Translations under genes and position numbers: made by a program | Shown: positions 7,462 to 23,552 of the stretch, piece after piece | Numbering within the stretch: the first letter of the stretch is position 1 | Layout of the letters: each line of letters opens with the position of its first letter | Assembly (NCBI GenBank): GCA_963826115.1 | Contig: CAWGVS010000006.1 | Coordinates: 96,001-160,000 of the forward strand | DNA length: 64,000 nucleotides | Direction: 5' to 3' | Source of the DNA: an uncultured Candidatus Rokubacteria bacterium | GTDB lineage: Bacteria; Methylomirabilota; Methylomirabilia; Rokubacteriales; DASRDR01 | Notes under the pieces: generated by a model | What the model saw: only the letters and a program-made list of their open reading frames with translations | What the model was told of the DNA's origin: nothing | Database searches by the model: none

Positions 7462-8697
7462 CTAAGGCGCCGCGAGGCGGTCCCGGACCAGCGCGATGAG
7501 GCGGTCGTGCGTCAGGGCCTCGCCGGTGCGCGACTCCACCCGGGCCTCGGTCTTGAGGCCGGTCTCGGTGAGGACGCAGCACACCGTCGCCGCGGGATCG
7601 AGCGCCCCTTCGGACAGGAGCCGTCGCGCGGCCGCGAGCGTCGCGACGCCGGTCGGGCCCGCGTAGACGCCCTCGGTCCGCGCGAGGAGCCGCTGCGCGT
7701 CGAGGATGGCCGCGTCCTCCACGTCGGTCGCGAGACCGCCGTGCTGCCGGAGGAGGCGCAGCACCCACGCGCCCTTCGCGCCGGGGTCACCGACCGCGAG
7801 CCCCTCGGCCACGGTGTAGGTGAGAGGCACGGGCCGGATCTCGCCGCCTTCCCGCCACGCGCGGACGACGGGGTTGGCGCGGGCGGCCTGGGCCGCCACC
7901 AGGCGCGGCGCCGCGTCGATCCAGCCGAGCGCGCGCATCTCCTCGAAGGCGCGCCAGCCGGAGATGAACGCCTCCCCCACGGCCACCGGGTAGACCACGA
8001 CGTCCGGCAGCCGGTACCCGCAGTCCTCGGCGATCTCCCAGGCGAGCGTCTTCTTCCCTTCCTGCTTGAAGACGTTCCGCGAGGCGCCGCCGTCGAACAC
8101 CGGCTCCTCGTCGATCATCCGGTCCCAGAGCCGGATGAGGTCGTCGTAGAAGCCGCGGTAGAGGACGAGGTCGGAGGCCACCAGGCCCATGTGGGCGAGC
8201 TTCGGAGCCGACGCCTGCTCGTAGCAGAAGATGAGGGCCCGCAGGCCGGCCCGCGTGGCGTACGCGGCGAGGGACGACCCGGCGTTCCCGGTCGAGACCA
8301 CGGAGACCGCGCGGTAGCCGAACTGGCGCGCGGCGGCGACGGCCGTGGCCGACGACCGGTCCTTGATCGTGCCCGTCGGGTTGGTGCCCTCGAACTTGAG
8401 GAGGAGACGCCGGACGCCGAGGACGCGGGCCAGGGCCGGCGCCTCGATGAGCGGCGTCGCGCCCTCGCCGAGCGACACGAAGTCCGCCGGATCGCGGATG
8501 GGCAGGACCGGATGGTAGCGCCATACCCCCCGGCCGGCGAACGCCCGGCCGGGCCCCGCGCGCCGCAGCGGCTCGAGGTCGTAGACCGGCTCGAGGAGGC
8601 CGCCGCATGCCGCGCACCCCAGCCGGTACGCGGGCAGCGTCTCGGCGCCGCAGTCGATGCACCGGAGCGCCGAGAGGCACGACGTCGGGCCGCTCAC
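7462..8697 (-). CDS. Threonine synthase-like PLP enzyme
   Basis: CxxC...CxxC N-terminus, SLGEGATPL, KFEGTNPTGTIKDR, STGNAGSS. Start set at GTG 8697 because the TTG at 8733 is part of a TTGACA -35 box. Confidence 0.85.
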   Translation of the reverse strand: MSGPTSCLSALRCIDCGAETLPAYRLGCAACGGLLEPVYDLEPLRRAGPGRAFAGRGVWRYHPVLPIRDPADFVSLGEGATPLIEAPALARVLGVRRLLLKFEGTNPTGTIKDRSSATAVAAARQFGYRAVSVVSTGNAGSSLAAYATRAGLRALIFCYEQASAPKLAHMGLVASDLVLYRGFYDDLIRLWDRMIDEEPVFDGGASRNVFKQEGKKTLAWEIAEDCGYRLPDVVVYPVAVGEAFISGWRAFEEMRALGWIDAAPRLVAAQAARANPVVRAWREGGEIRPVPLTYTVAEGLAVGDPGAKGAWVLRLLRQHGGLATDVEDAAILDAQRLLARTEGVYAGPTGVATLAAARRLLSEGALDPAATVCCVLTETGLKTEARVESRTGEALTHDRLIALVRDRLAAP

Positions 8698-8767: not shown

Positions 8768-9667
8768 TCAGCCCCGGTGGGCGAGCGCCACGCCGGCCAG
8801 AACGGCCAGCGCGCCCGCGACGAGCGCGAGGGTGAGCGTCTCCTGGCCCGCCAGCACGGCGATCGTCGTGGCGATCAGCGGGATGAGGAACGAGAACCCC
8901 ACCACGCGGGCGGTCGCCGTGCGCGCGAGCGCCACGTACCAGAGGAGGTTCGCCAGGGCGATCGTGCCGGCGGAGAGATAGGCCAGGAGGAGCCACTCCC
9001 GGAAGGACAGCGCGCTCCAGCCCACCTCGGCGAGGCCGGGCGCGCCGAGCGGGAGCAGAGGCACGACGCCGATCGCGGTCGCCCAGGTCGTCACGGCGAG
9101 CGGCGTCGCCCGCGCGAGCAGGGGCTTCCCCACCACGGTGTAGAGCGCCCAGGCGAGGCTCGCGCCGAGGCACAGGAGGTCGCCCACGAGGGAGGTGGAG
9201 CCCTCGTTGCCGCGGGCCACGATCACGGCGACACCCGCGAAGCCGAGCGCGATGCCCGCCAGGCGGCGCGGGCCGACCGTCTCGCCGTAGAGGAGCCAGG
9301 CGAGGAGCACCGCGAGGACCGGGCTCAGCGCCACCAGGATGGCGGCGTGGCCCGGCGACGTGCGATGGATGCCCGAGACCAGGAGGCCGTGGAAGAGGGT
9401 GTTCCCGAGGAGCCCCAGCAGGACGACCACGCCCCAGTCGCGCGCCCGGAGGCCCGGCCGGAGGGCGCCGCTCAGGAGGCCCACCAGGACCAGGATGGCG
9501 GCGGCGACCGCGCAGCGAAACGTGGCGAAGGCGAGCGGGGGGAAGAACGGCTGCGTCGCCTTGATCGCGGGATAGCTGCCGCCCCAGAGCAGGACGACGA
9601 AGAACAGGATCGGGACGACGGCGGCGCCGGCCGCGCGCCGTCCCGAAGGCCGGCCGGGGTCCGTCAG
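8768..9667 (-). CDS. DMT/EamA family transporter (probable CTG start overlapping upstream TGA)
   Basis: Ten-TM pattern; the frame stays open upstream of 9484 through LFFVVLLWGGSYPAIK to CTG 9667. Confidence 0.8.
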   Translation of the reverse strand: MTDPGRPSGRRAAGAAVVPILFFVVLLWGGSYPAIKATQPFFPPLAFATFRCAVAAAILVLVGLLSGALRPGLRARDWGVVVLLGLLGNTLFHGLLVSGIHRTSPGHAAILVALSPVLAVLLAWLLYGETVGPRRLAGIALGFAGVAVIVARGNEGSTSLVGDLLCLGASLAWALYTVVGKPLLARATPLAVTTWATAIGVVPLLPLGAPGLAEVGWSALSFREWLLLAYLSAGTIALANLLWYVALARTATARVVGFSFLIPLIATTIAVLAGQETLTLALVAGALAVLAGVALAHRG

Positions 9668-10005
9668 CGGGTCTTCATGTCTTCGGGGAAGTTCGAGGAG
9701 AAGGAGTAGGACTTGACCACGCCCTGGGCGTTGAAGGTGACCTCGAGCTGCTTGGAGAGGTCACCGTCCTTCCCCGATCCCTTCTGGAAGTAGTACCAGG
9801 TCCAGGTCTGGTCCCCGTCCTTCATGCCGACCTGCGTCGGATCGCCGTACATCTTGAGGAGGTCGGCCTTCGTCGTCGCGCCGTTCTTGATCTCCGCTCC
9901 CGGCTTGGGCGACGGGAAGTCGCGGCCCGTCGACAGCGCGCTGCACGCAGCGAGCGAAGCGGCGAACGCGAGGACGGACATGAGCGCGGTCAGACGGTTT
10001 CGCAT
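9664..10005 (-). CDS. SmpA/BamE-like outer-membrane lipoprotein
   Basis: MRNRLTALMSVLAFAASLAAC lipobox; IKNGATTKADLLKMYGDP...WTWYY...LEVTFNAQGVVKSY; GGAGG RBS; TTGACA-18-TACAGT promoter at 10041-10070. Confidence 0.75.
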   Translation of the reverse strand: MRNRLTALMSVLAFAASLAACSALSTGRDFPSPKPGAEIKNGATTKADLLKMYGDPTQVGMKDGDQTWTWYYFQKGSGKDGDLSKQLEVTFNAQGVVKSYSFSSNFPEDMKTR

Positions 10006-10321
10006 CGCGGGCCTCCTGGGTGGGGTGTTGAACGGCGCCCACTGTAGCCGACCACCGTCCGGGGTGTCAACGCGCGGCGCGCGGCGCCGCCGGCCGCCTT
10101 GACACCCCTCGGGGGGTCCGCCTAGCGTGAACCACGCTCCCATGGTCGGCCGCGCCTCACCACGGCCCGCGATCGTCGGACGCCGTCGGGTCGGGCCGCG
10201 GCGGACCGGGGATGAGGGTTCGCGTCGGCGAGCCCGGCGTATCCATCGTGCAAGGCCCGGTGCCGGAGCTGGCCGTAGTCCCGTCCGCCCCGCGCACTGA
10301 CCGGATCGGGAGGAGACGACG

Positions 10322-11443
10322 ATGCAAAGTGGCTGGCTCGAACAGTTCCACCGTCGTGTTGCCACGCCCAAGACGGAGCCCGAGGCCGCCCCGCCGCCGG
10401 AGGCGCCGGCCGAGGTGTCGCGGCGGGCGTTCATCCAGAGCGGTCTCGCGACGGGCGTCACGGCCGGCATGGCCGCGGGCGGCATGCTCGCCCAGACGCA
10501 GGTGGCGCAGGCCCAGGCGACGGGCGACACACCGCTCGGCGCGAAGTGGTGGCCGTCGAAGTGGGGCCCCCAGGATCAGGCCGGCGCCTCGAACCTGATC
10601 ACGCCGGCGAAGGTGCTGGAGGCGGCCAAGCTCATCAAGACCGGGAAGATCTACGAGCTCGGCCGCATGTACGAGGCGGGCATGCCGCTCTTCGGCTCCC
10701 GGGTCTTCGCCCTCCGCATCCCCGGCACGCCGACCGGCGGACCGTTCGGGAAGAACAAGCTCGTCTTCCACGACGAGTTCGTCGCCACGGAGATCGGCCA
10801 GGTCGGGACCCAGTTCGACGGGCTCGGCCACATCGGCTGCATCGTGGGCAAGGACGGCGACATGAACGAGATGCGGTACTACAACGGCTTCACGGAGGCG
10901 GAGATGGCGAACGCCTACGGCCTCCAGAAGCTGGGAATCGAGCACTGCAAGCCGTTCTTCACCCGCGGGGTCCTGGTCGACGTGGCGGGCCTCAAGGGCC
11001 GCATGCTGAACCTGGGCGAGGAGATCTCGGTCGCCGACGTCCAGGCGGCCCTCCAGCGTCAGAACATCGCCGAGTCCAGCATTCAGCCCGGCGACGGCGT
11101 GTTCTTTCACACCGGATGGAGCAGCCTCTGGATGAAGGACAACGCGAAGTTCAACGAGGGCGAGCCCGGCATCGGGCTGGACGTCGCGCGCTGGTGCGTG
11201 GCCAAGCAGGTGGCGCTCGTGGGAGCGGACACGTGGGCCACCGAGGTCGTGCCGAATCCGAACCCGGACCTGGTGTTCGCCGTCCACAACGAGCTGATCA
11301 CCAAGAACGGGATCTACAACCACGAGAACCTGGACTTCACGGGGCTGCTCGCGGACAAGGTCTCCGAGTTCGTCTACGTCTTCTCGCCGCTCCGCATCAA
11401 GGGCGGAACCGGCTCCCCCGGCCGCCCGATCGCGATCGTGTAG
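10322..11443 (+). CDS. Cyclase family (kynurenine formamidase-like) metallohydrolase with Tat signal
   Basis: SRRAFIQSG twin-arginine motif; QVGTQFDGLGH, GDGVFFHTGW, HENLD, GGTGSPGRPIA. Confidence 0.85.
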   Translation: MQSGWLEQFHRRVATPKTEPEAAPPPEAPAEVSRRAFIQSGLATGVTAGMAAGGMLAQTQVAQAQATGDTPLGAKWWPSKWGPQDQAGASNLITPAKVLEAAKLIKTGKIYELGRMYEAGMPLFGSRVFALRIPGTPTGGPFGKNKLVFHDEFVATEIGQVGTQFDGLGHIGCIVGKDGDMNEMRYYNGFTEAEMANAYGLQKLGIEHCKPFFTRGVLVDVAGLKGRMLNLGEEISVADVQAALQRQNIAESSIQPGDGVFFHTGWSSLWMKDNAKFNEGEPGIGLDVARWCVAKQVALVGADTWATEVVPNPNPDLVFAVHNELITKNGIYNHENLDFTGLLADKVSEFVYVFSPLRIKGGTGSPGRPIAIV

Positions 11444-11604
11444 CGGCCGATTCCCCGCTCCGGGGCCGATCGGCGGCCCCGGAGCGTTTCTCCTCTCGTT
11501 TGCCACGGGATCGCGGTGGCGTTGCGGAGCGGCCCCGCACCCGGGCTATCATCCGGTGTGCGCGCCGCGCCCGCCGTCCGACCCCGACCGATGACGCGCG
11601 TCCC

Positions 11605-12354
11605 GTGAGCTCCGGAGCCGCGGTGGGGCGCGGTCCGAGCCCATCCCGCGCGGAGGTCTGGGCCGGTGTCCGGGACGCGCTGACGACGGTCGTCCCGAGC
11701 ATCGTCGCGTACGGCATCGTCTGGGGCGGCCTCGCCCGGCAGGCCGGGCTCTCGCTGGGTGAGCTCGTCGCGATGTGCCTCCTCGTCACCGCCGGGACCG
11801 CGCAGTTCGTCGCGCTGCCGATGCTCCAGGCGGGCGCGCCCGCGTGGCTCCTCGTCGTGACCACCTACATCGTGAACCTCCGCCACTACCTGATGGCCGC
11901 CAGCCTGGCGCCCCACCTCGCCCACCTCTCGCGCGGACGCCTCGCGCTCATCGCCCACGGGGTCACGGACGAGTCGTACGCGCTCACGATGGCGCGGTTC
12001 GCGACGCACCGCCCGCACCCCGCCTACTTCGCCGGCTCGGCCGCCACGACGTACCTGGCCTGGTACGTCGGCGCCACGCTGGGCGGGCTCCTGGGCGGGC
12101 GCATTCCCGACCCGCATCGCTACGGCCTCGACTTCGTGTTCCCCGCCGTGTTCATCGCGATCCTGGCGCGAACGATCCAGTCGCCCTGGCAGTGGGCGGT
12201 GGCCGGGGTCGCCGCGGCCGTGGCGCTCCTCGTCAAGGGCACGATCGGGGGGACGTGGCACATCGCGCTGGCCGGGCTCGGCGCCTCGGCGCTCGGCATC
12301 TGGCTCGCGCCCCGCGCCGAGGCCGGCGGCGCGCGGACGGAGTCGTCGCGATGA
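11605..12354 (+). CDS. azlC: AzlC family branched-chain amino acid exporter
   Basis: AGTAQFVA, VNLRHYLM, TDESYA, YGLDFVFPAVFI. Confidence 0.88.
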   Translation: MSSGAAVGRGPSPSRAEVWAGVRDALTTVVPSIVAYGIVWGGLARQAGLSLGELVAMCLLVTAGTAQFVALPMLQAGAPAWLLVVTTYIVNLRHYLMAASLAPHLAHLSRGRLALIAHGVTDESYALTMARFATHRPHPAYFAGSAATTYLAWYVGATLGGLLGGRIPDPHRYGLDFVFPAVFIAILARTIQSPWQWAVAGVAAAVALLVKGTIGGTWHIALAGLGASALGIWLAPRAEAGGARTESSR

Positions 12355-12675: not shown

Positions 12676-14307
12676 GTGAGCGTCGGCGCGGTCGAGTCGT
12701 TCACCGCCGAGGAGCGAGCCCGGCTGGCGCCCCACTTCACGAGCGTCGACGGCCCTGTCTTCGCCCTCGTCAACCTGCCCGAGGTCGTGAAGGGCGCGCT
12801 CTTCGCCCGCTACTCGCGCTCCCCGAAGTCGCTTCGCCGGCTGTTCCTGGACGAGTTCGTCGGCGCCGAGGCGCTGGCGGACGCTGCGCCGGCCGGCGGC
12901 CCGATCGGCACCGAGCGCGCGGAGCGGCTGTTCGAGCGCGTCTTCGTCGAGTACGGCGACGACTCCGTCGCCCAGCTGGGGGGCGTCCACCTCGCGTGCG
13001 AGGGCGTCTCCAACGTGCTCACGAAGCTCCTCGAGTGGGGCCGGCTGATGGCCTACCTCGAGCAGTCGACCCGCTACGTCCCGTACGCGGACCGGCCCGG
13101 CGGGCGCTGGCGCTACCACGTGCCGGCGGAGGTGCGCGACGCGCCCCTCGTGCGCCAGTACGAGGCGACCCTCGACCTCATGTTCGAGACGTACGCCGAA
13201 TGGCTCGAGCGGGTGCAGGAGCACTTCCGGGCGGCCCATCCGCGACAGGCGTCGGACTCCGAGGCCGTGTACCGGAACACGATCCGCGCGAAGGCGCTCG
13301 ACACGCTACGCGGCCTCCTGCCGGCGGCGACACGGTCGAACGTCGGGCTCTACGGCACGGGGCAGGCGTACGAGGCGCTCCTCCTGCGGCTCCGGGCGTC
13401 CCCGCTCGCCGAGGCGCGGGCGTGCGCCGACCTCATGCTGACCGAGCTGCGCAAGGTGATCCCGGCGTTCCTCCGACGCGTGGACGCGCCCGACCGGGGT
13501 GGCGCGTGGTCGGCCTACCTCGCCGCCACGCGGGAGGCCACGGAGAGGGTGACGGCGCAGACCGTGGGGGAGACCGCCGCCCTCTCCCGCCCGGAGGTGG
13601 TCCTCACGGACTTCGATCCCGAGGGCGAGGTCAAGGTCGTCGCCGCCGCGCTCTACGCGGCCTCGGGGCTGCCCGACGACCAGCTCCTCGCGCGCGTGCG
13701 GCGGATGAGCGCCGGGGAGCGAGCGGCGATCCTCGCCGCGTACGTGGGCGAGCGCGGGAACCGCCGCCACAAGCCGGGGCGCGCCCTCGAGCGAACGAGC
13801 TACCGGTTCGACGTCCTGACGGACTACGGCGCCTTCCGCGACCTCCAGCGGCACCGGCTCCTGTCTCTCGAGTGGCAGCCCCTCGGCCCCCGACATGGCT
13901 ACGCGATGCCGGACGCGGTCGAGGCGGCGGGCGCCGGCGCCGACTGGCGGCGGGTGATGGACGCGTCCGCGGAGCTCCACGACGCGCTCTCGGCCGGGGG
14001 CCTCGCCGCCGTCGCGCCGTACGCGGTGTGCATGGCCTACCGGATCCGCTTCTACATGGAGATGAACGCCCGCGAGGCGATGCACGTGCTCGAGTTGCGG
14101 ACGGCGCCCCAGGGCCATCCCGCGTACCGGCGCGTCTGCCAGGCGATGCATCGCCTCATCGCCGAGGACGCCGGGCACCGCGGGCTCGCCGCGGCCATGC
14201 GCTTCGTCGACCACTCGGCCGTGGAGCTGGAGCGCCTCGAGGCTGAGCGGCGGACCGACGCCCGCCGGCGCACCCTGTCGGAGGCCGGCCCCGCCGAGCG
14301 CCCCTGA
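12676..14307 (+). CDS. thyX: FAD-dependent thymidylate synthase, tandem two-domain form
   Basis: ALFARYSRS, YGDDSVAQL, LEQSTRY in domain 1; FRDLQRHR and HVLELRTAPQGHPAYR in domain 2. Confidence 0.88.
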   Translation: MSVGAVESFTAEERARLAPHFTSVDGPVFALVNLPEVVKGALFARYSRSPKSLRRLFLDEFVGAEALADAAPAGGPIGTERAERLFERVFVEYGDDSVAQLGGVHLACEGVSNVLTKLLEWGRLMAYLEQSTRYVPYADRPGGRWRYHVPAEVRDAPLVRQYEATLDLMFETYAEWLERVQEHFRAAHPRQASDSEAVYRNTIRAKALDTLRGLLPAATRSNVGLYGTGQAYEALLLRLRASPLAEARACADLMLTELRKVIPAFLRRVDAPDRGGAWSAYLAATREATERVTAQTVGETAALSRPEVVLTDFDPEGEVKVVAAALYAASGLPDDQLLARVRRMSAGERAAILAAYVGERGNRRHKPGRALERTSYRFDVLTDYGAFRDLQRHRLLSLEWQPLGPRHGYAMPDAVEAAGAGADWRRVMDASAELHDALSAGGLAAVAPYAVCMAYRIRFYMEMNAREAMHVLELRTAPQGHPAYRRVCQAMHRLIAEDAGHRGLAAAMRFVDHSAVELERLEAERRTDARRRTLSEAGPAERP

Positions 14308-14322
14308 CGCGCGGCGCGCCGG

Positions 14323-15225
14323 TCAGCCGCGGGCGCCGCGCGGCGCCGGGTCCGCGTCGGCCTCGACGAGCGCGGCGAGCGCGGCGAGCCCCCCGAGATC
14401 CCGCGGCCGCCTCAGCCGGCGCACGGGCACCGTGGCCGCGAGCCGGGCGCAGCGCGCGAGGAAGCTCGACGTGCCGAGCTGCTCGAGCGCCGGCGCGATG
14501 TAGGCGTGCTGGAGCAGCTCGAAGACCGCGGTGTGCCCGCCGAGGGGCTCGAGGCCCAGCGGCTCGCCGTTGGCAAGGACGTAGAGGCGTCGGAGAGCCT
14601 GCGGGGCCATCGCCCGGATGCTGGGGACCTTCGCTCGCTTCTCCTCGTTCGCGTAGAGGCGGGGCAGCGCCTCGGGGTTCTCGCCGAGGGCGGACACCGC
14701 ATCGGGCCAGAGCTTGAGCTGGGGGAATCCCGGCACGACGGTCGGCCCGGCCGGCGCGTCGAGGTCCACGGCGAGCACGTCGTCCGCCACGACGGCGCCG
14801 CCGCGCGCGTGGAGCGCCGCCGTCGTGGTCGACTTCCCGTCGCCGGAATGGCCGAGGAACGCGACCGCGCCGCCGGCGACGGTCGCCGCGCTCGCGTGAA
14901 GAACGACGAGGCCGCGCTGGTGAAGGAGCACGCCAAGCGCCGGTCCGAGCAGGTAGAGGCGCAGGAGCTCCGGGGGCACCCCCGGCCGCGGGTCGACCGT
15001 GATCTCCTCGCCGCGGCGCAGGAGGATCGTGCCGACCTCGGGCCACGCGAGGCGGGCCTCGCCGTCCGTCACGCTGAGCAAGTGCCCGCCGGCCGGCGGC
15101 GGGCTCGGGACGTCCGGGACCCTGCCCAGGCGCACCACGACGTCCGGCGGGGCCGGGCCCGGGACGAGCTCCGGCAGTTCGAGCGCCGAGTGGATACCCA
15201 GGCCGTACGCGACGTACGTGAACAC
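14323..15225 (-). CDS. HPr-kinase-like RiPP kinase (PadeK-type lasso peptide kinase)
   Basis: YVAYGLGIHSALELPEL N-terminus; LHASA, Walker A GHSGDGKST, VADDV; last gene of the lasso-type operon. Confidence 0.85.
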   Translation of the reverse strand: MFTYVAYGLGIHSALELPELVPGPAPPDVVVRLGRVPDVPSPPPAGGHLLSVTDGEARLAWPEVGTILLRRGEEITVDPRPGVPPELLRLYLLGPALGVLLHQRGLVVLHASAATVAGGAVAFLGHSGDGKSTTTAALHARGGAVVADDVLAVDLDAPAGPTVVPGFPQLKLWPDAVSALGENPEALPRLYANEEKRAKVPSIRAMAPQALRRLYVLANGEPLGLEPLGGHTAVFELLQHAYIAPALEQLGTSSFLARCARLAATVPVRRLRRPRDLGGLAALAALVEADADPAPRGARG

Positions 15226-15269
15226 GGGCGGCGCGCCTGGCGCCGGGGGGTCCTTCCTGGAGCCAGCCG

Positions 15270-15800
15270 TCAGGCGGCGGGCTCGGTCTCGCGCAGCGCC
15301 AGCTCGACCCGGAGGGCGGCGACGTCGCCGCGCAGCGCCCTGAGCTCGCGCTCGAGGGCTTCGAGCCGCGTCGCCTGGGCCTGCACGAGGCCGTGGAGGC
15401 CCTGGATGGCCGCGAGGGCGACCCCGGCCGCGTCGAGGGGGAAGATGTGGCGGTCGTCGACCCCCAGGCCGAAGGCCGCGGCGAAGTCCTGGGCCATCGG
15501 TCCCAGGTGACGGACCGGCTCACCCTTGTAGGACCAGCGCTCGATCGGCAGCGCAACGACCGCCGCCAGGACCGAGTGCCGATCGACGGCTTCGAATTCT
15601 TCTTTGGCGTTCCGGTCGCTTTGTACTGTGCCCGATTGGCCAAGGGTGAGAGCGGAGAGGCGCCCGTGCTCGGTGAGCCGAGGGCTTCGGTACGGCTTCC
15701 GGGCGCTGGTGGACGCCGGCGTCGCGGGCTCGGCGTCCGTCTGACCATTCGTGACGATCACGTCGCTCGTCGGTGCCTGGGTCGCGATGCGCTGGTCCAT
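15270..15800 (-). CDS. RiPP precursor A1: lasso-type leader + core GQSGTVQ + peptidase S74 (ICA) domain + coiled coil
   Basis: RKPYRSPRLTEHGRLSALTL|GQSGTVQ|SDRNAKEEF...LPIERWSYK...HLGPMAQDF...LAAIQGLHGLVQAQATRLEALERELRAL; GGAGG RBS. Confidence 0.85.
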   Translation of the reverse strand: MDQRIATQAPTSDVIVTNGQTDAEPATPASTSARKPYRSPRLTEHGRLSALTLGQSGTVQSDRNAKEEFEAVDRHSVLAAVVALPIERWSYKGEPVRHLGPMAQDFAAAFGLGVDDRHIFPLDAAGVALAAIQGLHGLVQAQATRLEALERELRALRGDVAALRVELALRETEPAA

Positions 15801-15931
15801 GGCGTCCCTCCCGAAGTCCGAAGGATCAGGCCGGCCACGCCACCCTGCGCCGGCATGGAGCGCTCACAAGCGGGTGCCGTGCCCCTCTCCATCTTGCGCC
15901 GAGTGGAACGTCCGCTTCAAGGGTCGGAGCG

Positions 15932-16459
15932 TCAGGGGACGGGCTCGCTCTCACGCAGGGCGAGTTCGACCCGGAGGGCGGCGGCGTCTCCGCGTAACTC
16001 CGCCAACTGGCGCTCGAGGGCTTCGAGCCGCGTCGCCTGGGCCCGCACGAGGCCGTGGAGGCCCTGGATGGCCGCGAGGGCGACCCCGGCCGCGTCGAGG
16101 GGGAAGATGTGGCGGTCGTCGACCCCCAGGCCGAAGGCCGCGGCGAAGTCCTGGGCCATCGGTCCCAGGTGACGGACCGGCTCACCCTTGTAGGACCAGC
16201 GCTCGATCGGCAATGCGGCGACCGCCGCCAGGACTGAATGACGATCGACGGCTTCGAATTCTTCTTTGGCGTTCCGGTCGCTCGGTGGGCTGGATTGGCC
16301 AAGGGTGAGACCGGACAGGCGCCCGTGCTCGGTGAGCCGGGGGCGCGTGTACGGCTTCCGGGCGCTGGTGGACGTCTCCGTCGCGGGCCCGGCCTCCGTC
16401 TGACCCTGGGCGACACTCGGGTCGCTCGTCGGTGTCTGGCTCGGGATGCTCGAGTCCAT
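15932..16459 (-). CDS. RiPP precursor A2: lasso-type leader + core GQSSPP + peptidase S74 (ICA) domain
   Basis: ATG 16459 with GGAGG RBS; RKPYTRPRLTEHGRLSGLTL|GQSSPP|SDRNAK...GPMAQD. Confidence 0.85.
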   Translation of the reverse strand: MDSSIPSQTPTSDPSVAQGQTEAGPATETSTSARKPYTRPRLTEHGRLSGLTLGQSSPPSDRNAKEEFEAVDRHSVLAAVAALPIERWSYKGEPVRHLGPMAQDFAAAFGLGVDDRHIFPLDAAGVALAAIQGLHGLVRAQATRLEALERQLAELRGDAAALRVELALRESEPVP

Positions 16460-16586
16460 GGCGTCCCTCCTGAAGACCGAAGGATCGGGCCGACCATGCC
16501 GGTCGCAGGCATGGAGTGTTGAAGCGGACGTCGTGCCGAGTCCATCTTGCGCCGAGTCGAACGTCCGCTTCAAGGGATTCGGGCCG

Positions 16587-17081
16587 TCAGGCGACGGGCT
16601 CCCTCTCACGCAGGGCGAGCTCGACCCGGAGGGTGGCCGCGTCTCGGCGTAGCGCTGCCAGCTCGCGCTCGAGGGCTTCGAGCCGCGTCGCCTGGGCTTG
16701 CACGAGGCCGTGGAGGCCCTGGATGGCCGCGAGCGCGACTCCGGCCGCGTCGACCGGGAAGATGTGACGGTCGTCCGCGCCGAGGCCGAAGGCCGCGGCG
16801 AAGTCCTGCGCCATCGGCCCGAGATGGCGAGCCGCCTCGCCGCGATAGGACCACCGCTCGATCGGCAGGTGGAGAAGTCCGGCCAGCACCTCGCGGGGGT
16901 CGACCGGCACGAAGCCCTCCTTCAGGGCTCGATCGCTGGTGATGGTCGACGGGCCCGCGGTGGCCGTCGCGATCGTCCCGTGCTCGACCAGGCGGGGCGT
17001 TGCGTAGGGTTTGCGAGCTCCCGCCGGTTGCGGCGGCGGGGGCGTCGCGGGCTGGGGCGTCTCGGCCGGCTTCCGCTCCAT
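16587..17081 (-). CDS. RiPP precursor A3: lasso-type leader + core GPSTIT + peptidase S74 (ICA) domain
   Basis: ATG 17081 with AAGGAG RBS (C-terminal part of track ORF 16587..18680); RKPYATPRLVEHGTIATATA|GPSTIT|SDRALK...GPMAQD. Confidence 0.85.
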   Translation of the reverse strand: MERKPAETPQPATPPPPQPAGARKPYATPRLVEHGTIATATAGPSTITSDRALKEGFVPVDPREVLAGLLHLPIERWSYRGEAARHLGPMAQDFAAAFGLGADDRHIFPVDAAGVALAAIQGLHGLVQAQATRLEALERELAALRRDAATLRVELALREREPVA

Positions 17082-17137
17082 GGGGTCAGCTCCTTTTCGG
17101 ACGGCGGGTGAACGACGAGCGGGGATGCGCGCGGACC

Positions 17138-19021
17138 TCACGGCGTCGCGCGGCGAAGCCACAGGGTCAGGACGGCGAGCCGCCACACGGCGCGCACCTC
17201 CCGCATCCCGTCCCGTGTCGCGTACGCGCGATAAGTGCGCCGGACGGTCTCCGACGGCACGTACGGGTCGAGCGTGCGCGCGGCCTCGCGCATGAGGACG
17301 TCGAGCCGTTCGCGGCCGTACACGGTGAGCGCCGAGCGGAGCATCAGGTCGATCGGGGCCTTCCCGCGCCGGTCCCGGATCTCGGCAGGCAAGAGCGTGG
17401 CGAGGGCGTGCCGCGCGACGATGCGCGTCAGGCCGCGCCGGATCTTCTGGGACGCCGGGAGCGCGAGGCAGAACTCCATGACCCGGCGGTCGAGGAAGGG
17501 GTCCCGCGAGTCGAGCCCCACCGCGTCGCCGGCGGCGGCCAGCGTTTCCAGGGTGGCCGCCATCCGGGGCGCGGTCAGCTGGCGCCAGTGATCGTAGCGC
17601 GCCCACTCGACGCCGGTCGGCGGCGGCCCGGGCTCCGCCGCCCTGAGCCGCTCGTCGAGCCGGATCCGCCGCGCGAAGTCGGTCCGGATCAGCGGCGGCC
17701 CCAGGACGCCCTGGCGGCGCAGGCGTCGCCAGGCGCGGCGGGCCGGCCGGGGCGCCACCGAGGCCGCGACCATCCGCAGGACGCGCCAGGCCGATCGCTC
17801 GAACGACCGCGAGAACCGGCGCGCCTCTCGGGCGAGCGCCAGCCACCGGCCCTGGCGGGCGAGGTCGCCCAGGTAACCCGTTCCGTGGGAAACGACGACG
17901 TCGCCCCCGGTTCCCTCCAGGAACGTGCGCATCCCGTCGGCGCTCGCCGCGCGGTAGAGCGCCCAGTGCATGTAGTACCCGGGCGCCCTGAACACCTCGT
18001 CCCCCGGCCCGGCCTCGCGCTCGAAATCCCCGAGCGGGTCGAGCACGTCCCCGCGGACGTGGCGCGGCGCGAGCCCGCCGCCCGCCTCGACGGCCGCGAC
18101 GTAGGCGCCCTCGTCGCAGGAGGGGATCGTCGGGAAGCGCGCCGTGTAGGTCGTGAGCGGACCCGTGCCCATCGCCGCTTGGACCGCGCGAGCGACGCAC
18201 ACCACCGCCGAGGAGTCGAGCCCGCCGCTCAGCGCGGCGGCGACGGGGCCCGCGCTGCGGAGGCGGCAGCGCACGGCGTCGGTGAACAGCTCGCGGAACC
18301 GCTCGGCGTACTCGGCGTCCGACCCGAGCCGCAACTCTCGCATCGGGTCGAGCTGCCAGTAGGGTCGCGGCGCGGCGGCGCCGGCCGGGGTCACGATCAG
18401 GGAATGCCCCGCCGGCAACCGGGCGATGTCCTCGTGGAGCGTGGCGGTCCGATTGTCGAGCCCCGGGACGAGGTAGGCGGCGATTCGGAGCTCGTCGATC
18501 CGCCGCGGGACGTCGGGGATCGCGAACAGGGCGGCCGTCCCCGAGGCGGCGGCGAACACGCGCGGGCCGGCATGATAGTAGAGGGGCTTCACGCCCGCCG
18601 GATCGCGCGCGCAGAAGAGCACCCGGCGCCGGGCGTCCCACACGACGAACGCGAAATCGCCCAGGAGCCGCGCCGCGCACGCCTCGCCCCAGCGCTCCCA
18701 GGCGCGGAGGATGAGCGCCCCGTCGCCGAGGTCGTCGGCGCGCCGCGGGTCGAGGTCGAGGGCCGCGGCGAGCTCGGCGCGGTTGTCGAGCCGCGCGTCG
18801 GCGGTGACGACCACCTCGCCGGTGTCGCTCGCCCGGGGCAGCTTCTCCTCGAGGCCCGTGGCGCCGGCCCGGAGCGCCCGGTGGCCGAGGCCGACCGGGC
18901 CGTCCAGCCAGACGCCGACGGCGTCGGCGGCGCGGGGCGCGAGACGCTCGGTGACCCGGTCGAGCGCCAGTCGGTCGAGCGGCGCGCCGTCGAGCCGCCG
19001 GATCGCGGCGATGCCGCTCAT
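17138..19021 (-). CDS. Lasso cyclase-like asparagine synthetase homolog (C protein)
   Basis: Starts MSGIAA (no catalytic Cys of AsnB); DARLDNRAEL, GDFAFVVWD, ARDPAGVKPLYY, ALSGGLDSS PP-loop, RDPFLDRRVMEFCLALP. Confidence 0.9.
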   Translation of the reverse strand: MSGIAAIRRLDGAPLDRLALDRVTERLAPRAADAVGVWLDGPVGLGHRALRAGATGLEEKLPRASDTGEVVVTADARLDNRAELAAALDLDPRRADDLGDGALILRAWERWGEACAARLLGDFAFVVWDARRRVLFCARDPAGVKPLYYHAGPRVFAAASGTAALFAIPDVPRRIDELRIAAYLVPGLDNRTATLHEDIARLPAGHSLIVTPAGAAAPRPYWQLDPMRELRLGSDAEYAERFRELFTDAVRCRLRSAGPVAAALSGGLDSSAVVCVARAVQAAMGTGPLTTYTARFPTIPSCDEGAYVAAVEAGGGLAPRHVRGDVLDPLGDFEREAGPGDEVFRAPGYYMHWALYRAASADGMRTFLEGTGGDVVVSHGTGYLGDLARQGRWLALAREARRFSRSFERSAWRVLRMVAASVAPRPARRAWRRLRRQGVLGPPLIRTDFARRIRLDERLRAAEPGPPPTGVEWARYDHWRQLTAPRMAATLETLAAAGDAVGLDSRDPFLDRRVMEFCLALPASQKIRRGLTRIVARHALATLLPAEIRDRRGKAPIDLMLRSALTVYGRERLDVLMREAARTLDPYVPSETVRRTYRAYATRDGMREVRAVWRLAVLTLWLRRATP

Positions 19022-19452
19022 CGCGGCGTGCCCAGCGCCGACAGGCTCACGTAGCGGGTCTCGACCGGGCCGCCGATCACGACGCGCCCGTCGTGCTCGA
19101 GCCAGGCGTGCGCCTCGAAGCCGCGACCTCCGCCACCGGCCACCCCCAGCTTGAGCTCGCTCGGGTGCCCGTGACGGCCGAGCAGGGCGTGCGCCGCCAG
19201 CGCCCGGACGAGGCACGTCGTCCGCGGCACAAGGCAGTCGGCGGCGCCCACGGCCCAGACGATCCGTTCGACCGACGGTGTCCGGCCCGTCCGTATGCCG
19301 GGGTCATTCGCGAGCGCGCCCACCGCGCCGTGGACGCGCCGGAACGGGAGCACCCACAGTCCGACGCGGACGCCCGCCAGGAGCCCCGCGGCGGCAAGGA
19401 CCAGGCGTTGCTCGGCGGACGGCAGCGCGAGGAATCTAGCGACGCGCCTCAC
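19018..19452 (-). CDS. Lasso peptide B2 leader peptidase (transglutaminase-like)
   Basis: TTCLVRALA (catalytic Cys), LKLGV, FEAHAWLEHDG. Confidence 0.92.
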   Translation of the reverse strand: MRRVARFLALPSAEQRLVLAAAGLLAGVRVGLWVLPFRRVHGAVGALANDPGIRTGRTPSVERIVWAVGAADCLVPRTTCLVRALAAHALLGRHGHPSELKLGVAGGGGRGFEAHAWLEHDGRVVIGGPVETRYVSLSALGTPR

Positions 19453-19735
19453 CGGAGACCTCGAGAAGCCCGGCCTCGGCCATGGTCCGGAGGAGGGCGA
19501 GGAGGTCCGCCTCGCAGCGCGCGGAGTCGACCTCGTACTCCCGGAGCAGCGCGTCCCGGACGTCCCGCACGCGCCGCGGCGTCGCGATGAGCTCCCAGAT
19601 GCGGGCTCCGATCGGGTCCAGCCCGTAGTAGACGCCGGCCTTCAGCTGGACGATCGCGACCTCGTCCTCGAGGCGGCAGGAGGCCTGCTCCTTCGAGGCC
19701 ACGACGACCGTGTCGAGCGAGATGGCGCCGTCCAC
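19436..19735 (-). CDS. PqqD-family RiPP recognition element (lasso B1/E protein)
   Basis: LEDEVAIVQLKAGVYYGLDPIGARIWELI...LLREYEVDSARCEADLLALLRTMAEAGLL. Confidence 0.92.
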   Translation of the reverse strand: MDGAISLDTVVVASKEQASCRLEDEVAIVQLKAGVYYGLDPIGARIWELIATPRRVRDVRDALLREYEVDSARCEADLLALLRTMAEAGLLEVSGEARR

Positions 19736-19778
19736 GGTGTCAGGCGCTCCCCGGCGCGCCGTCGCTCGGCACGGCCCG

Positions 19779-19807
19779 ATCGTATCCCGGTCCCCCGCGC
19801 GCGACAA
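19779..19807 (-). promoter_or_regulatory. Putative sigma70 promoter of the RiPP operon
   Basis: Minus strand TTGTCG-17 nt-TACGAT just upstream of the RRE gene. Confidence 0.5.
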
Positions 19808-19819
19808 TCGCGCGCGGCG

Positions 19820-21022
19820 CTAGGCCGGGCCGCGGAAGTCGTCCTTCGCGGCCCGGAGCGCGGCCGGGTCGGCCAGGAGGTCGAGGGCGGTCAGCGCGAG
19901 AGCCTTGGCGCCGGCCACCATGCCGGCTCGCGCGAGCGGCGTCGCGTTGTGCTCCGCGAACTCGCGCGAATGGCCCGGTACCCCGTCGGGCGCCGTACGG
20001 ATGTAGGGATGGATCGTGGGGAGGGCCTGGCTCACGTTTCCGGCGTCCGTCGAGCCGTACCCCGCCTGGCCGTCGTCGGGGTCCACGGGAAAGTCGATGC
20101 GCGCGAGGTTTCGCTCGAAGAGATCCGCCATCGGCGCGTTCGGCTTGAGCGGGTCGTGGATCCGCGGATCCACCGTCACCTGGACGCGGCAGCCCGTCGC
20201 CAGGGCCGCGCCCTCCGCGGCCGCCTCGAACCGTCGCCGGATCTCCTGGAGGTACGTCCTGTCGAGCGAGCGGAGGTAGAAGTCCGCGGCGGTGTACTCC
20301 GGGATGATGTTGGGCTGCTGCCCGCCCACCGTGATCACCCCGTGGATGCGCGCGTCGGGGCGGAGCTGCTGCCGCATCGCGTCCAGCGCGTTGAAGAGCC
20401 CGATGACGGCGTTGAGCGCGTTGACCCCGCGCCACGGCCACGACGCCGCGTGCGCCGCGGTGCCGAAGTACTCCACCTTCGCCTTCATGAGCCCGAGGGT
20501 CGGGCGCCAGACCTGGGTGCCGCAGCGCGGGTGGATCATCATGGCCGCGTCGACGTCCTGGAACACGCCCGCGTCCATGAGCTTGACCTTGCCCGCGCCG
20601 CCCTCCTCCGCGGGCGTGCCGACCACCGTGATCCGGCCCGGGTAGGGGAAGTGCCCCCCGGCGAGGCTCGCGGCGGCGACGGCGAGCGCGGCGCCCGCGC
20701 CGGCGCCGGCGGTCGCGATGACGTTATGGCCGCAGGCGTGGCCGATGCCGGGAAGCGCGTCGTACTCGGCCATCACGGCGATCGTCGGGCCGTCGGCCGT
20801 GCCGGGCACCTCGGCGCGGAAGGCGGTCGGCAGGCCGCCCACCCCGCGCTCGACGCGGCAACCCCGGCGCTCGAGGAACTCCGTCAGCCAGCGCGCCGCC
20901 TGCTCCTCCTTGAACGCGAGCTCGGGGTGCGCGTGGATCTGGAGCGCGAGTCGCCAGAGATCCTCGGCCATTCCGTCGACGGCGTCGGTCACGCGGCTCT
21001 TGAGACGGTCCAGGTCGCTCAT
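19820..21022 (-). CDS. M20 family amidohydrolase (PM20D2/AbgB-like)
   Basis: IHAHPELAFKE, AEYDALPGIGHACGHN, GTPAEEGGAGK, GSTDAGNVS. Confidence 0.9.
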   Translation of the reverse strand: MSDLDRLKSRVTDAVDGMAEDLWRLALQIHAHPELAFKEEQAARWLTEFLERRGCRVERGVGGLPTAFRAEVPGTADGPTIAVMAEYDALPGIGHACGHNVIATAGAGAGAALAVAAASLAGGHFPYPGRITVVGTPAEEGGAGKVKLMDAGVFQDVDAAMMIHPRCGTQVWRPTLGLMKAKVEYFGTAAHAASWPWRGVNALNAVIGLFNALDAMRQQLRPDARIHGVITVGGQQPNIIPEYTAADFYLRSLDRTYLQEIRRRFEAAAEGAALATGCRVQVTVDPRIHDPLKPNAPMADLFERNLARIDFPVDPDDGQAGYGSTDAGNVSQALPTIHPYIRTAPDGVPGHSREFAEHNATPLARAGMVAGAKALALTALDLLADPAALRAAKDDFRGPA

Positions 21023-21118
21023 GGCGGGCCTCCACGGAGGGATCGGGCGAGTGGGGCGCGACTCGGCGCGGGCCGCAGGCTCCCACGCCCGTCCCGCGAC
21101 TGTCAAGGCGACGTCCCG

Positions 21119-22249
21119 TCACCGGCCGGCGGCGCGCCGCGCCTCGGCCCGGCGGCCCGCGGCGATCCGGTCGTCCAGCGATGGGTGCGTGGCGAAGAGG
21201 AGCTCCCGGAGTCGCCCGGGCCGGCGCTCGGCGAGGTTGAGGCGGCCGAGCCGCTCCATGGCGGCGACGAAGGCCGCGGGCGCCCCGCTCACGTCGAGCG
21301 CGATCCGGTCGGCCTCGCGCTCGAGGCGCCGCGACCACGCGGCGATCGGCGGCGTGGCGAGGAGCCCCAGCACGCTGACCACCAGGGCCAGGAACGGCAG
21401 GCCCGCGGGGTCCGCGGGGCCGGCGAGGCCGAGCGACGCGACGCCCATGCGGAGAGCCCGGTCGGCGACCCAGAGGGTCGCGACCAGGAGGGCGCCGTGG
21501 AGCAGGAGACCCTGCGTCATGTGGCTCCGCGCGTGGTGTCCGAGCTCGTGGGCGAGGACGACCTCCACCTCCTCGACGGGGAACTCGCGGAGGAGCGTGT
21601 CGCTCACGAGGATGCGCCGCGTGCGTCCGAGTCCCACCACCGCCGCATTCGCGACGCGGCCCTTGCGCGAGAAGTCGGCAACCAAGACCTCCGCGGCCCG
21701 GACGCCCATCCGCGCGGCGAGCGCGAGGATCCGGGCGCGGAGCTCCCGATCCTCGAGCGGCGTCAGCCGGTAGAAGAGGGGCACGAGCCACACGGGCACC
21801 ACCAAGGTCAGGAGCACGAGGCCCGCCGCCAGCACGCCGCTCGCCCAGAGCCACCACCGCTCCGGGCTCCACTGGAGGAGGCCGTACACCACCTGGGCGG
21901 CGAGGAGCCCGAGCGCGCCGCCGATCGCGAGCGCCTTCGCGCGGTCGCCCAGCCAGCCGGCGAAACGCTGCGTCAGGAGTCCCGCCCGGCGCGGGAGGAC
22001 GAAGCCGCCGACGACGTCGAGCGGAAAGGTCAGGAGCGCCTGCGTGACGCCGAGCGCCAGCGTCATCGTCGCGACGACCGCCGCGGCGGGGAGCCACCCG
22101 TCGAGCCCCGCGGCCAGGCGCGTGGCGGCGCCGCTCCACGCCCACCACACGAGGAGCACGGCGCCGAGCCCGAGGTCGACCAGCGAGAGCGCGAACTGAC
22201 GCCGGTGATACTCGCGGGCCCGGGTGGCCTCCGCGTCGCGCGCGTCCAT
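21119..22249 (-). CDS. M48 family (Ste24-like) membrane zinc protease
   Basis: TM helices; ANAAVVGLGRTRRI, LAHELGH, EREAD, THPSLDDRI. Confidence 0.9.
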   Translation of the reverse strand: MDARDAEATRAREYHRRQFALSLVDLGLGAVLLVWWAWSGAATRLAAGLDGWLPAAAVVATMTLALGVTQALLTFPLDVVGGFVLPRRAGLLTQRFAGWLGDRAKALAIGGALGLLAAQVVYGLLQWSPERWWLWASGVLAAGLVLLTLVVPVWLVPLFYRLTPLEDRELRARILALAARMGVRAAEVLVADFSRKGRVANAAVVGLGRTRRILVSDTLLREFPVEEVEVVLAHELGHHARSHMTQGLLLHGALLVATLWVADRALRMGVASLGLAGPADPAGLPFLALVVSVLGLLATPPIAAWSRRLEREADRIALDVSGAPAAFVAAMERLGRLNLAERRPGRLRELLFATHPSLDDRIAAGRRAEARRAAGR

Positions 22250-22319
22250 CGCTTCACAAGCGTAGCGCGGACGCCCGCGCGCGGCCACCCGCGCGCGCCG
22301 CGGTGGTACGATGACTCGC

Positions 22320-23552
22320 GTGACGAAGCCGCCTCCGGCCGAGCGCCGCGCGCCCGACGTGACCGACGCGCTGGCGCCGGGGGCCGTCGGCGCGGTCCGG
22401 GTGCGCCCGAACACCCGCGTGCTCGGTCTCCTGGCGCTCGGCCACCTCGTGGTCGACATGAACCAGGGGTCGATCGCGCCGCTCTTGCCCTTCTTCAAGT
22501 CGGCCTTCGGGCTGTCCTACGCGGCGTCCGGGGTCATCCTGCTCGTGGGGAACATGACCTCGTCGATCGTCCAGCCGGTGTTCGGCTACCTCGCGGACCG
22601 GGCGCCGCGGCGTTGGCTCCTGCCCTGGGCCGTGCTCCTGTCGGCGGTCGGGGTCGCCGTGGCCGGGGTGGCGCCGTCGTACTGGGGCCTGCTGGCGGTG
22701 GTCGTCGTGTCGGGGCTCGGCGTCGCCGCCTATCACCCCGAGGGCTACCGCACGGCGAACCAGGTCGCGGGCGACCGGAAGGCCACGGGACTGTCGCTCT
22801 TCTCGATCGGCGGGAACATCGGCATCGCCCTCGGGCCGCCGGCGATCGCCTTCCTCGTCCCGCGGTTCGGCCTGCCCGGGACCCTCGGCCTCCTCGGGCC
22901 CGGCCTCGTGGTCGCGGCGCTGATCGCCGCGATCCTGCCGGCGCTCATCGCGGCGCCCGCCAAGAGCGCGCCGGCGCGCACGGCGGGGGAGCGCGGCCGC
23001 GACATGCCGGGGGCCATGGCGCTCCTCATCGGGGTCGTGACCGTGCGGTCGTGGACGCAGCTCGGCCTGATCGCCTACGTGCCCTTCCTCTACGTCGACC
23101 TCCTCGGCAAGGACCCGCGCGTCGCCGGGCCGCTCCTCTTCCTCTTCCTCGGCGCCGGCGCCGTGGGCACGCTCACCGGCGGCCCGATCGCCGACCGCTG
23201 GGGCCCGCGGCGCTATCTCGTCGGGAGCTTCCTCCTGTCGACGCCGCTGATCGCGCTCTTCCTCTGGTGGCCGGGCGGCTGGGTGGCCGCGATCACGCTC
23301 GCGGCGGCCGGCTTCGTCCTGGTGTCGTCGTTCTCGGTGACCGTCGCGCTCGGTCAGGCCTATCTCCCGCGGCGTCTCGGCATGGCGGCCGGCCTGATCG
23401 TGGGGCTGGCCATCGGCACGGGCGGGCTCGGCGTCGCGCTGCTCGGCTGGGTCGCGGACCACTGGGGCCTCTACGCCGCGCTCCACCTGATCGCCGCGCT
23501 CCCGCTCGCCGGCCTCGCCGTCGCGCTCTGTCTGCCCGAGCCCCGGGCCTAA
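22320..23552 (+). CDS. MFS transporter (Fsr-like); start 22311 or 22320
   Basis: GHLVVDMNQG, QPVFGYLADR, YHPEG, FSIGGNIGIALGP. Confidence 0.88.
   Translation: MTKPPPAERRAPDVTDALAPGAVGAVRVRPNTRVLGLLALGHLVVDMNQGSIAPLLPFFKSAFGLSYAASGVILLVGNMTSSIVQPVFGYLADRAPRRWLLPWAVLLSAVGVAVAGVAPSYWGLLAVVVVSGLGVAAYHPEGYRTANQVAGDRKATGLSLFSIGGNIGIALGPPAIAFLVPRFGLPGTLGLLGPGLVVAALIAAILPALIAAPAKSAPARTAGERGRDMPGAMALLIGVVTVRSWTQLGLIAYVPFLYVDLLGKDPRVAGPLLFLFLGAGAVGTLTGGPIADRWGPRRYLVGSFLLSTPLIALFLWWPGGWVAAITLAAAGFVLVSSFSVTVALGQAYLPRRLGMAAGLIVGLAIGTGGLGVALLGWVADHWGLYAALHLIAALPLAGLAVALCLPEPRA

Follow-up and report, generated by a model that had tools for sequence, protein, structure and literature searches.

Lasso-type precursors fused to a putative self-removing peptidase S74 follower in a Rokubacteria gene cluster

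Introduction

Lasso peptides are RiPPs, peptides made by the ribosome and modified after translation. Their gene clusters of the paeninodin and pseudomycoidin type encode a split B1/B2 pair, a cyclase (C), an HPrK-like kinase and sometimes a nucleotidyltransferase; the roles of the last two are treated in extracts of PMC9266682. The precursors are short, carry a YxxPxL…T-x leader and end in a phosphorylated Ser. Here we describe a cluster from an uncultured soil bacterium of the Candidatus Rokubacteria (GenBank assembly GCA_963826115.1), located in a 64,000-nucleotide stretch of contig CAWGVS010000006.1 (positions 96,001 to 160,000), which we call the window. To judge by its predicted enzymes it is a split-B, kinase-bearing lasso cluster with the same type of leader, and a nucleotidyltransferase of family NTP_transf_5 is present in two related loci (L014 and L100). 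Its three precursors are unlike those of the paeninodin type: they have a 116-residue peptidase S74 extension, a core of 6-7 residues and no ring-forming acid.

S74 domains are found in endosialidases, phage tail fibres and MyRF, and the domains in the window share with these an SDxxxK motif, an aromatic W-x-Y stretch and a C-terminal coiled coil (PMC8326128, extracts). According to the same extracts, the cut in MyRF falls between P586 and S587 and requires a trimer, with the C-terminal coiled coil as the driving force of its assembly; replacement S587A or K592A blocks cleavage, and these two residues correspond to S911 and K916 of the endosialidase endoNF. The cargo is different. A trimeric beta-helix fibre or a DNA-binding domain fills this role in endosialidases and MyRF; in the window it would be a leader plus core peptide of about 55 aa.

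Borosin precursors are fused to their own methyltransferase and are thus also RiPP precursors with a self-acting enzyme domain; that enzyme modifies the core, whereas the S74 domain would merely cut itself off. For a lasso follower, triculamin is the nearest precedent: its lasso-type precursor has a required C-terminal follower. In the abstract of bioRxiv 10.64898/2026.07.03.736388, this follower is a peptide without a protease domain, proposed to dock on the cyclase, and the pathway is called non-canonical. Full-text literature searches, with subscription papers and supplements outside their reach, returned no description of an S74-fused lasso precursor, in agreement with an earlier note on this DNA, which considered the architecture undescribed.

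We propose that the window encodes RiPP precursors with a self-removing S74 follower, in which B1 and B2 would remove the leader and the S74 domain would set the C-terminus. We estimate the probability of this reading at roughly 0.7.

Results

Leader, core and S74 domain of the precursors

The precursors and their cores are located as follows.

15270-15800, minus strand: precursor A1, 176 aa; Peptidase_S74 37.2 bits from Ser61; leader Y37…T52-L53
15621-15641, minus strand: A1 core GQSGTVQ; the Ser61 codon is at 15618-15620
15932-16459, minus strand: precursor A2, 175 aa; Peptidase_S74 40.0 bits from Ser60; leader Y37…T52-L53
16283-16300, minus strand: A2 core GQSSPP, with the S74 domain from Ser60
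16587-17081, minus strand: precursor A3, 164 aa; Peptidase_S74 35.4 bits from residue 49; leader Y26…T41-A42
16938-16955, minus strand: A3 core GPSTIT, with the S74 domain from Ser49

All three have the same layout, consisting of an N-terminal spacer, a lasso-type leader (KPYxxPRLxEHG…T-x), a core of 6-7 residues, the S74 domain and a coiled coil. The cores are placed between T-x and SDR, as the earlier note had delimited them. The profile search that it proposed for the S74 domain bears out the assignment, with all three proteins above the Pfam cut-off of 22 bits. Profile position 1 coincides with the Ser of SDRxxK in each (Ser61 in A1, Ser60 in A2 and Ser49 in A3), and the motif of the Ser/Lys catalytic pair (S-x4-K) is present, formed in A1 by Ser61 and Lys66. 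Among 44 aligned sequences, S61, D62, R63, K66, W89 and Y91 are invariant. The leader of A1 scores 22.7 bits on the NCBIfam lasso leader model NF033521, above the cut-off of 19.

The three paralogs contain the only S74 domains of their own genome. A1 matches 23 phage records through its S74 part alone, the genes concerned being annotated as tail fibre, virion structural protein or chaperone of endosialidase. In the best 12 of the 23, the matching segment begins at residue 60, 61 or 65 and ends near 135-141, with 37-46% identity, and none of the 23 matches residues 1-59. The homology therefore begins at, or just after, the residue at which this family cuts itself.

A2 is 84% identical to A1. 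Among the paralogs, divergence is greatest in the core; their S74 parts have 79-93% DNA identity. In the first 33 codons of A1 and A2 (15702-15800 and 16361-16459), there are 13 nonsynonymous and no synonymous differences; the 116 codons of the S74 part contain 12 synonymous and nine nonsynonymous ones. From these counts, the region ahead of the leader looks fast-evolving.

Conservation in the homolog family

A protein search restricted to lengths of 96-308 aa gave 4,543 matches at E ≤ 0.001 among 6,071 candidates; the counts over 120 given below refer to the best 120 of these matches. The leader-core-S74 layout is present in 120 of 120, with the leader directly upstream of the S74 Ser. Thr is found at position -2 in 118 of them, Phe or Leu at -1 in 100, and SDxxxK follows the core in all 120; 114 of 119 have the [ET][RT]W[SN]Y motif. 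A separate search limited to residues 30-75 yielded seven candidates and five matches, and is unfit for counting leader-bearing members.

Core lengths of 5 to 11 residues occur in 8, 34, 37, 26, 9, 5 and 1 homologs, respectively, so that 72 of the 120 have a core of 7-9 residues. There are 110 distinct cores, rich in Pro, Ser, Gly, Ala and Thr and devoid of Cys, Trp and Tyr, with Ser present in 117. The last core residue is most often Pro (37/120), which also precedes the cleavage Ser in MyRF (P586). Column entropy is lowest over the first 100 S74 columns (0.59 bits), with 0.96 bits for the leader and 2.6-3.1 for the core (n = 119, the 307-aa P0001 being excluded). A conserved leader, a hypervariable core and a conserved follower are together the classic mark of a RiPP precursor.

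In six more distant members (P0156, P0158, P0171, P0208, P0233 and P0267), the S74 Ser is preceded by a lasso-like core that has an acid at position 7 or 8. P0121 (382 aa) contains five tandem cassettes, each made up of a lasso-type leader, a core of 7-10 residues, SDxxxK and about 20 further residues, and a single complete S74 domain at residues 276-328; it scores 61 bits on NF033521. It looks like a multi-core precursor, the cassettes of which may be cut in trans by the S74 domain. P0140 and P0148 are small S74 proteins with a KPWSTPxL leader (Trp in place of Tyr) and only three or four residues (TYGG, TYT) before the S74 Ser; WxxP versus YxxP leader motifs as determinants of RRE (RiPP recognition element) specificity are the topic of a section in PMC13381572, according to the outline of that 2026 paper.

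Synteny and distribution

Gene order was compared in 79 loci with a related S74 domain from species-representative genomes. In three Rokubacteria relatives (L010, L012 and L013), an RRE, B2, cyclase, two precursors and kinase are found in the same order; the earlier note had suggested mining for YxxPxL-S74 proteins beside PqqD, Transglut_core3 and Asn_synthase genes. L011, a 5.3-kb contig, has two precursors and the kinase, and L014 (Phycisphaerales) lacks a cyclase and has the RRE, B2, a precursor, the kinase and NTP_transf_5. In L010-L014, all the precursors bear the leader. The remaining 74 of the 79 loci contain no lasso gene, and their S74 domain mostly ends a long fibre-like open frame. 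A kinase homolog directly follows the S74 precursor in L010, L011, L012, L013, L014, L100 and L101.

L100, a distant metagenome contig, encodes a cyclase (669.5 bits on the NCBIfam model NF033535), an S74-fused precursor, a kinase and NTP_transf_5, in that order. Its core, GLGNPGLDVDMGNLSAP, has 17 residues with Gly1 and Asp8 and is a canonical lasso core; the S74 Ser comes immediately after it. As far as can be read from its sequence, L100 would fit exactly the picture of B2 cutting on the N-side and the S74 domain on the C-side. The earlier note had put forward this division of labour; the domains, the RiPP pattern, the synteny and the L100 core speak for it, while the acid-free cores of the window had been left unaddressed.

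The closest relatives of the window are metagenome-assembled genomes of Rokubacteria/Methylomirabilota. In a scan of the phylum, 10 of 251 genomes have a match at E ≤ 1e-10, G000 included, and within the same genus a precursor match is found in six of 14 other genomes. The flanking genes (12676-14307, plus strand; 19820-21106 and 21119-22498, minus strand) include ThyX (Thy1, 124 bits) and an M20 peptidase gene, and the ThyX/M20 flanks are syntenic in related genomes with 82-90% identity. Given the fixed flanks and the patchy presence, the cluster behaves as an accessory island and looks like one at a fixed site.

Three Phycisphaerae genomes encode leader-core-S74 proteins together with PqqD, B2 and kinase, and in none of these whole genomes is there an Asn-synthase match above the lasso cut-off (best 230.7 versus 525 bits). 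The clusters are located at 6839-10563 in L014, 9013-9702 in L098 and 2673-4544 in L099, and two of the three contain short precursors that bear this leader without an S74 domain. These genomes may contain a pathway of leader removal and phosphorylation without ring closure. A class-level scan around the Phycisphaerae genome G001 gave matches in five of 151 genomes, with small leader-type proteins in G001 only.

Enzyme genes and operon

The remaining genes of the cluster are listed below.

19436-19807, minus strand: B1, the RRE, PqqD family; Pfam PqqD 63.9 bits over residues 49-115
19018-19452, minus strand: B2 leader peptidase, a transglutaminase-like Cys protease; Transglut_core3 80.7 bits, NF033537 88.4 bits (cut-off 33)
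17138-19021, minus strand: Asn-synthetase-like lasso cyclase, 627 aa; Asn_synthase 159 bits, NF033535 608.4 bits (cut-off 525)
14323-15225, minus strand: HPrK-like kinase, 300 aa; Walker A motif GHSGDGKST, Hpr_kinase_C 20.2 bits (cut-off 33.3)

The seven genes are arranged head-to-tail, all on the minus strand, and span 14323-19807; open reading frames and Pfam/NCBIfam searches agree with the earlier note on their number and order and on the coordinates of the operon. The RRE, B2 and the cyclase each have a match above a curated cut-off. On the NCBIfam model lasso_PqqD_Bac, the RRE scores 59.8 bits, under the cut-off of 80, and its true start may lie inside the open reading frame given. The cyclase ATG overlaps the B2 stop as ATGA, and this cyclase is the only NF033535 match above cut-off in the whole genome. 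It starts with MSGI and hence has no Cys2, as noted before. Lasso cyclases usually lack the N-terminal Cys, and the feature to which the earlier note drew attention is not a special one.

A promoter of the operon's own had also been proposed, and this part did not hold: a scan of 14000-20200 found no sigma-70-like site. The window has a guanine plus cytosine content of 0.69-0.79. Upstream of the RRE, on the same strand, is an M20 peptidase gene, whose stop codon is followed after 12 nt by the start of the RRE open reading frame. In the scanned range there is a single terminator-like site, on the plus strand, within the start region of A3. The spacers 5' of A1 (15801-15931) and A2 (16460-16586) share a conserved stretch (…CCCTTGAAGCGGACGTTC.ACTCGGCGCAAGATGGA…) and have the same ribosome-binding region, GGGAGGGACGCC; when folded, these 127-131-nt spacers were indistinguishable from shuffled sequences (z = 0.64 and -1.66).

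One soil RNA-library run contained 5% of the sampled words. It gave one contig of 181 nt over 15401-15581, with five letters different, and otherwise fragments of 35-40 nt. We rejected this run as evidence of expression: the sequence comes from the conserved S74 part of a relative, and DNA carry-over is possible.

Predicted complex of the RRE with the leader

A complex predicted for residues 25-123 of the RRE and 25-75 of A1 scored 0.52, with a verdict of weak support, in a range (0.60 or under) in which only five of 78 solved complexes pass and which contains all four passing mismatches (of 180). The best of three controls scored 0.00, contact agreement between runs was at least 95% and the pLDDT (predicted local distance difference test) of the partner was at least 53. 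Overall, the pass mark is attained by 51 of 78 solved complexes and two of 108 mismatched pairs. Lasso RRE-leader complexes have been solved, and the pass may therefore reflect likeness alone.

Other small S74 proteins

In the Aulosira cyanobacterium locus L084, a 187-aa protein (7752-8315, plus strand) begins with a double-glycine-type leader (…LSDEQLAACVGG), followed by about 60 residues and an S74 domain that scores 40.7 bits. At a distance of 1.3 kb (9572-11812, plus strand) is a gene for a YcaO cyclodehydratase that also has a winged-helix domain; P0212 and P0258 are further proteins noted alongside this one. An S74 follower may thus serve another RiPP class, to judge from this locus. Low-complexity Ser/Thr-rich and Cys-rich proteins are found in Myxococcales/Nannocystis (L018, L025, L035, L036, L038, L046, L055, L059, L060, L075 and L079; P0144), with …C-P-[RIM] or …L-C-V directly before the S74 domain and, in P0144, a twin-arginine-like signal. 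They look like a further case in which the self-cleaving module serves outside fibres.

Discussion

In the pathway that we propose, the C-terminal coiled coil would gather three precursors, and the S74 Ser/Lys pair (Ser61 and Lys66 in A1) would cut just before the Ser; the follower would be discarded and a leader-core peptide with a defined C-terminus released. The PqqD protein would bind the KPYxxPRL leader and hand it to B2, which in A1 would cut after Thr52-Leu53 and expose Gly54. The cyclase would then use the Gly amine to form a small lactam ring, and the kinase would phosphorylate a core Ser. In long-core relatives such as L100, the ring partner would be Asp8, giving a normal lasso. In the window cores, the likeliest partner would be the new C-terminal carboxylate, leading to a head-to-tail ring of 6-7 residues. 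This closure is the least certain sub-step of the pathway, and we put it forward tentatively; among the three options for the product it is weakly favoured, and cores of 5-11 residues that are rich in Pro, Gly and Ser and have no conserved acid are in its favour.

Several observations weigh against the proposal as a whole. The leaders of A2 and A3 score 15.3 and 16.9 bits on NF033521, under the cut-off of 19; of the leader check proposed earlier, only the A1 part came out clearly, with the motif itself present in all three. The precursors have no beta-helix, unlike endoNF, in which cleavage involves Arg897 of the upstream triple beta-helix (PMC8326128, extracts); in MyRF, according to the same extracts, the stalk is not needed for cleavage. 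An AlphaFold2 monomer model of A1, based on the 44-sequence alignment, was poor (mean pLDDT 56.4), its sole confident part being the C-terminal helix 124-172 (pLDDT 85-97); an obligate intertwined trimer can probably not be modelled as a monomer. Sequence and profile searches of the PDB gave no significant S74 structure (MyRF, 7dc3, had an E-value of 0.72), and the top matches were designed coiled coils. With the poor model and no significant PDB match, the S74 fold is without structural confirmation. The kinase has the Walker A motif and a conserved position, whereas its profile scores are under the cut-offs, with 23.4 bits against a cut-off of 200 on TIGR04352 in addition to that on Hpr_kinase_C. 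Characterised lasso kinases phosphorylate the C-terminal Ser of the precursor (extracts of PMC9266682), yet Ser is the last core residue in just 10 of the 120 homologs, which also counts against the proposed phosphorylation. Lastly, it is from domains, motifs, conservation and synteny that we infer all the chemical steps and their order, autocleavage, RRE binding and cutting by B2 among them.

The most serious difficulty concerns the product. A lasso product has an Asp or Glu at positions 7-9 and a threadable tail; the excised cores GQSGTVQ, GQSSPP and GPSTIT contain neither an acid nor a tail, and the sole Asp at position 8 or 9 in the window precursors is that of the S74 motif. After both cuts, the cyclase would thus have no canonical acceptor, which makes a true, threaded lasso product from these cores doubtful, if not ruled out. 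Asp and Glu are also absent from 73 of the 120 homolog cores, and cores of 5-11 residues misfit a rule of 7-9-residue rings under any single model. To our knowledge, neither head-to-tail closure nor an acid-free substrate has ever been shown for the lasso cyclase family.

One way around the missing acceptor is that the cyclase joins Gly1 to the SDR Asp before any cleavage, the S74 part being kept as a trimeric scaffold or threaded tail. The position of this Asp in the window, 8 or 9 after Gly1, agrees with the lasso ring rule, as does its position in 79 of 120 homologs (7-9), and the very strong conservation of the S74 part would be expected. We nevertheless regard such a product as quite unlikely. 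The SDR Asp is at 10-13 in the other 41 homologs, 33 of the 120 have no acid at 7-9 at all, and in L100 the canonical Asp8 lies inside the core, with the SDR Asp at position 19. The SD motif is a general one, shared by the S74 domains of fibre proteins, and so is not a lasso adaptation; the invariant Ser and Lys argue for retained catalysis, and a cut before the Ser would reopen the Gly-Asp ring. Alternatively, the short cores may stay linear, perhaps phosphorylated, with the cyclase idle or acting on cores with an internal acid only. The Phycisphaerae genomes without a cyclase above cut-off and the many acid-free cores would agree with this. These genomes are metagenome-assembled and possibly incomplete, however, the window cyclase is intact and translationally coupled to B2, and a cyclase is kept beside short-core precursors in L010, L012 and L013; linear products are therefore unlikely.

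It is also conceivable that the S74 genes are phage-derived or fibre remnants located near a lasso cluster by chance, with a short precursor elsewhere. S74 domains occur widely, in 16,913 proteins of the representatives library at E ≤ 0.001, and mostly end long fibre-like proteins. We consider this very improbable and have rejected it on the position of the leader, the synteny and a pattern scan of the genome: the leader directly precedes the S74 Ser in all 120 close homologs, the synteny recurs across several loci and clades, and phage records have no match to residues 1-59. A permissive leader pattern had nine matches in the 6.24-Mb assembly, of which only the three paralogs are precursor-like, so that the conventional short lasso precursor that the earlier note had allowed for has no credible candidate in this genome.

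Returning to the self-removing follower, the five cassettes of P0121, the location of the L084 protein beside YcaO and the Phycisphaerae clusters without a cyclase suggest a broader, speculative version of it, which we think rather unlikely as a whole. The S74 domain would then be a general self-removing C-terminal module of RiPPs. Here it would make a carboxylate, or a Ser ester, to be joined to the N-terminus freed by B2, and the lasso enzymes would make phosphorylated head-to-tail 5-11-mers rich in Pro, Ser and Gly, a new RiPP class.

RiPP precursors are usually short peptides, the ends of which are cut by separate proteases. A phage-type self-cutting domain on the precursor would, if our reading is true, be a new way to set the C-terminus of a peptide, and clusters of this kind would be overlooked by standard genome miners, which seek short open reading frames. 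The family is not rare, with its 4,543 proteins of 96-308 aa and a leader in all of the best 120. The S74 module may also be of use as a tool for traceless peptide release. Acid-free cores beside an intact lasso cyclase raise the question of what else this enzyme family can cyclise, and an unusual ring chemistry, if true, could mean a new RiPP class.

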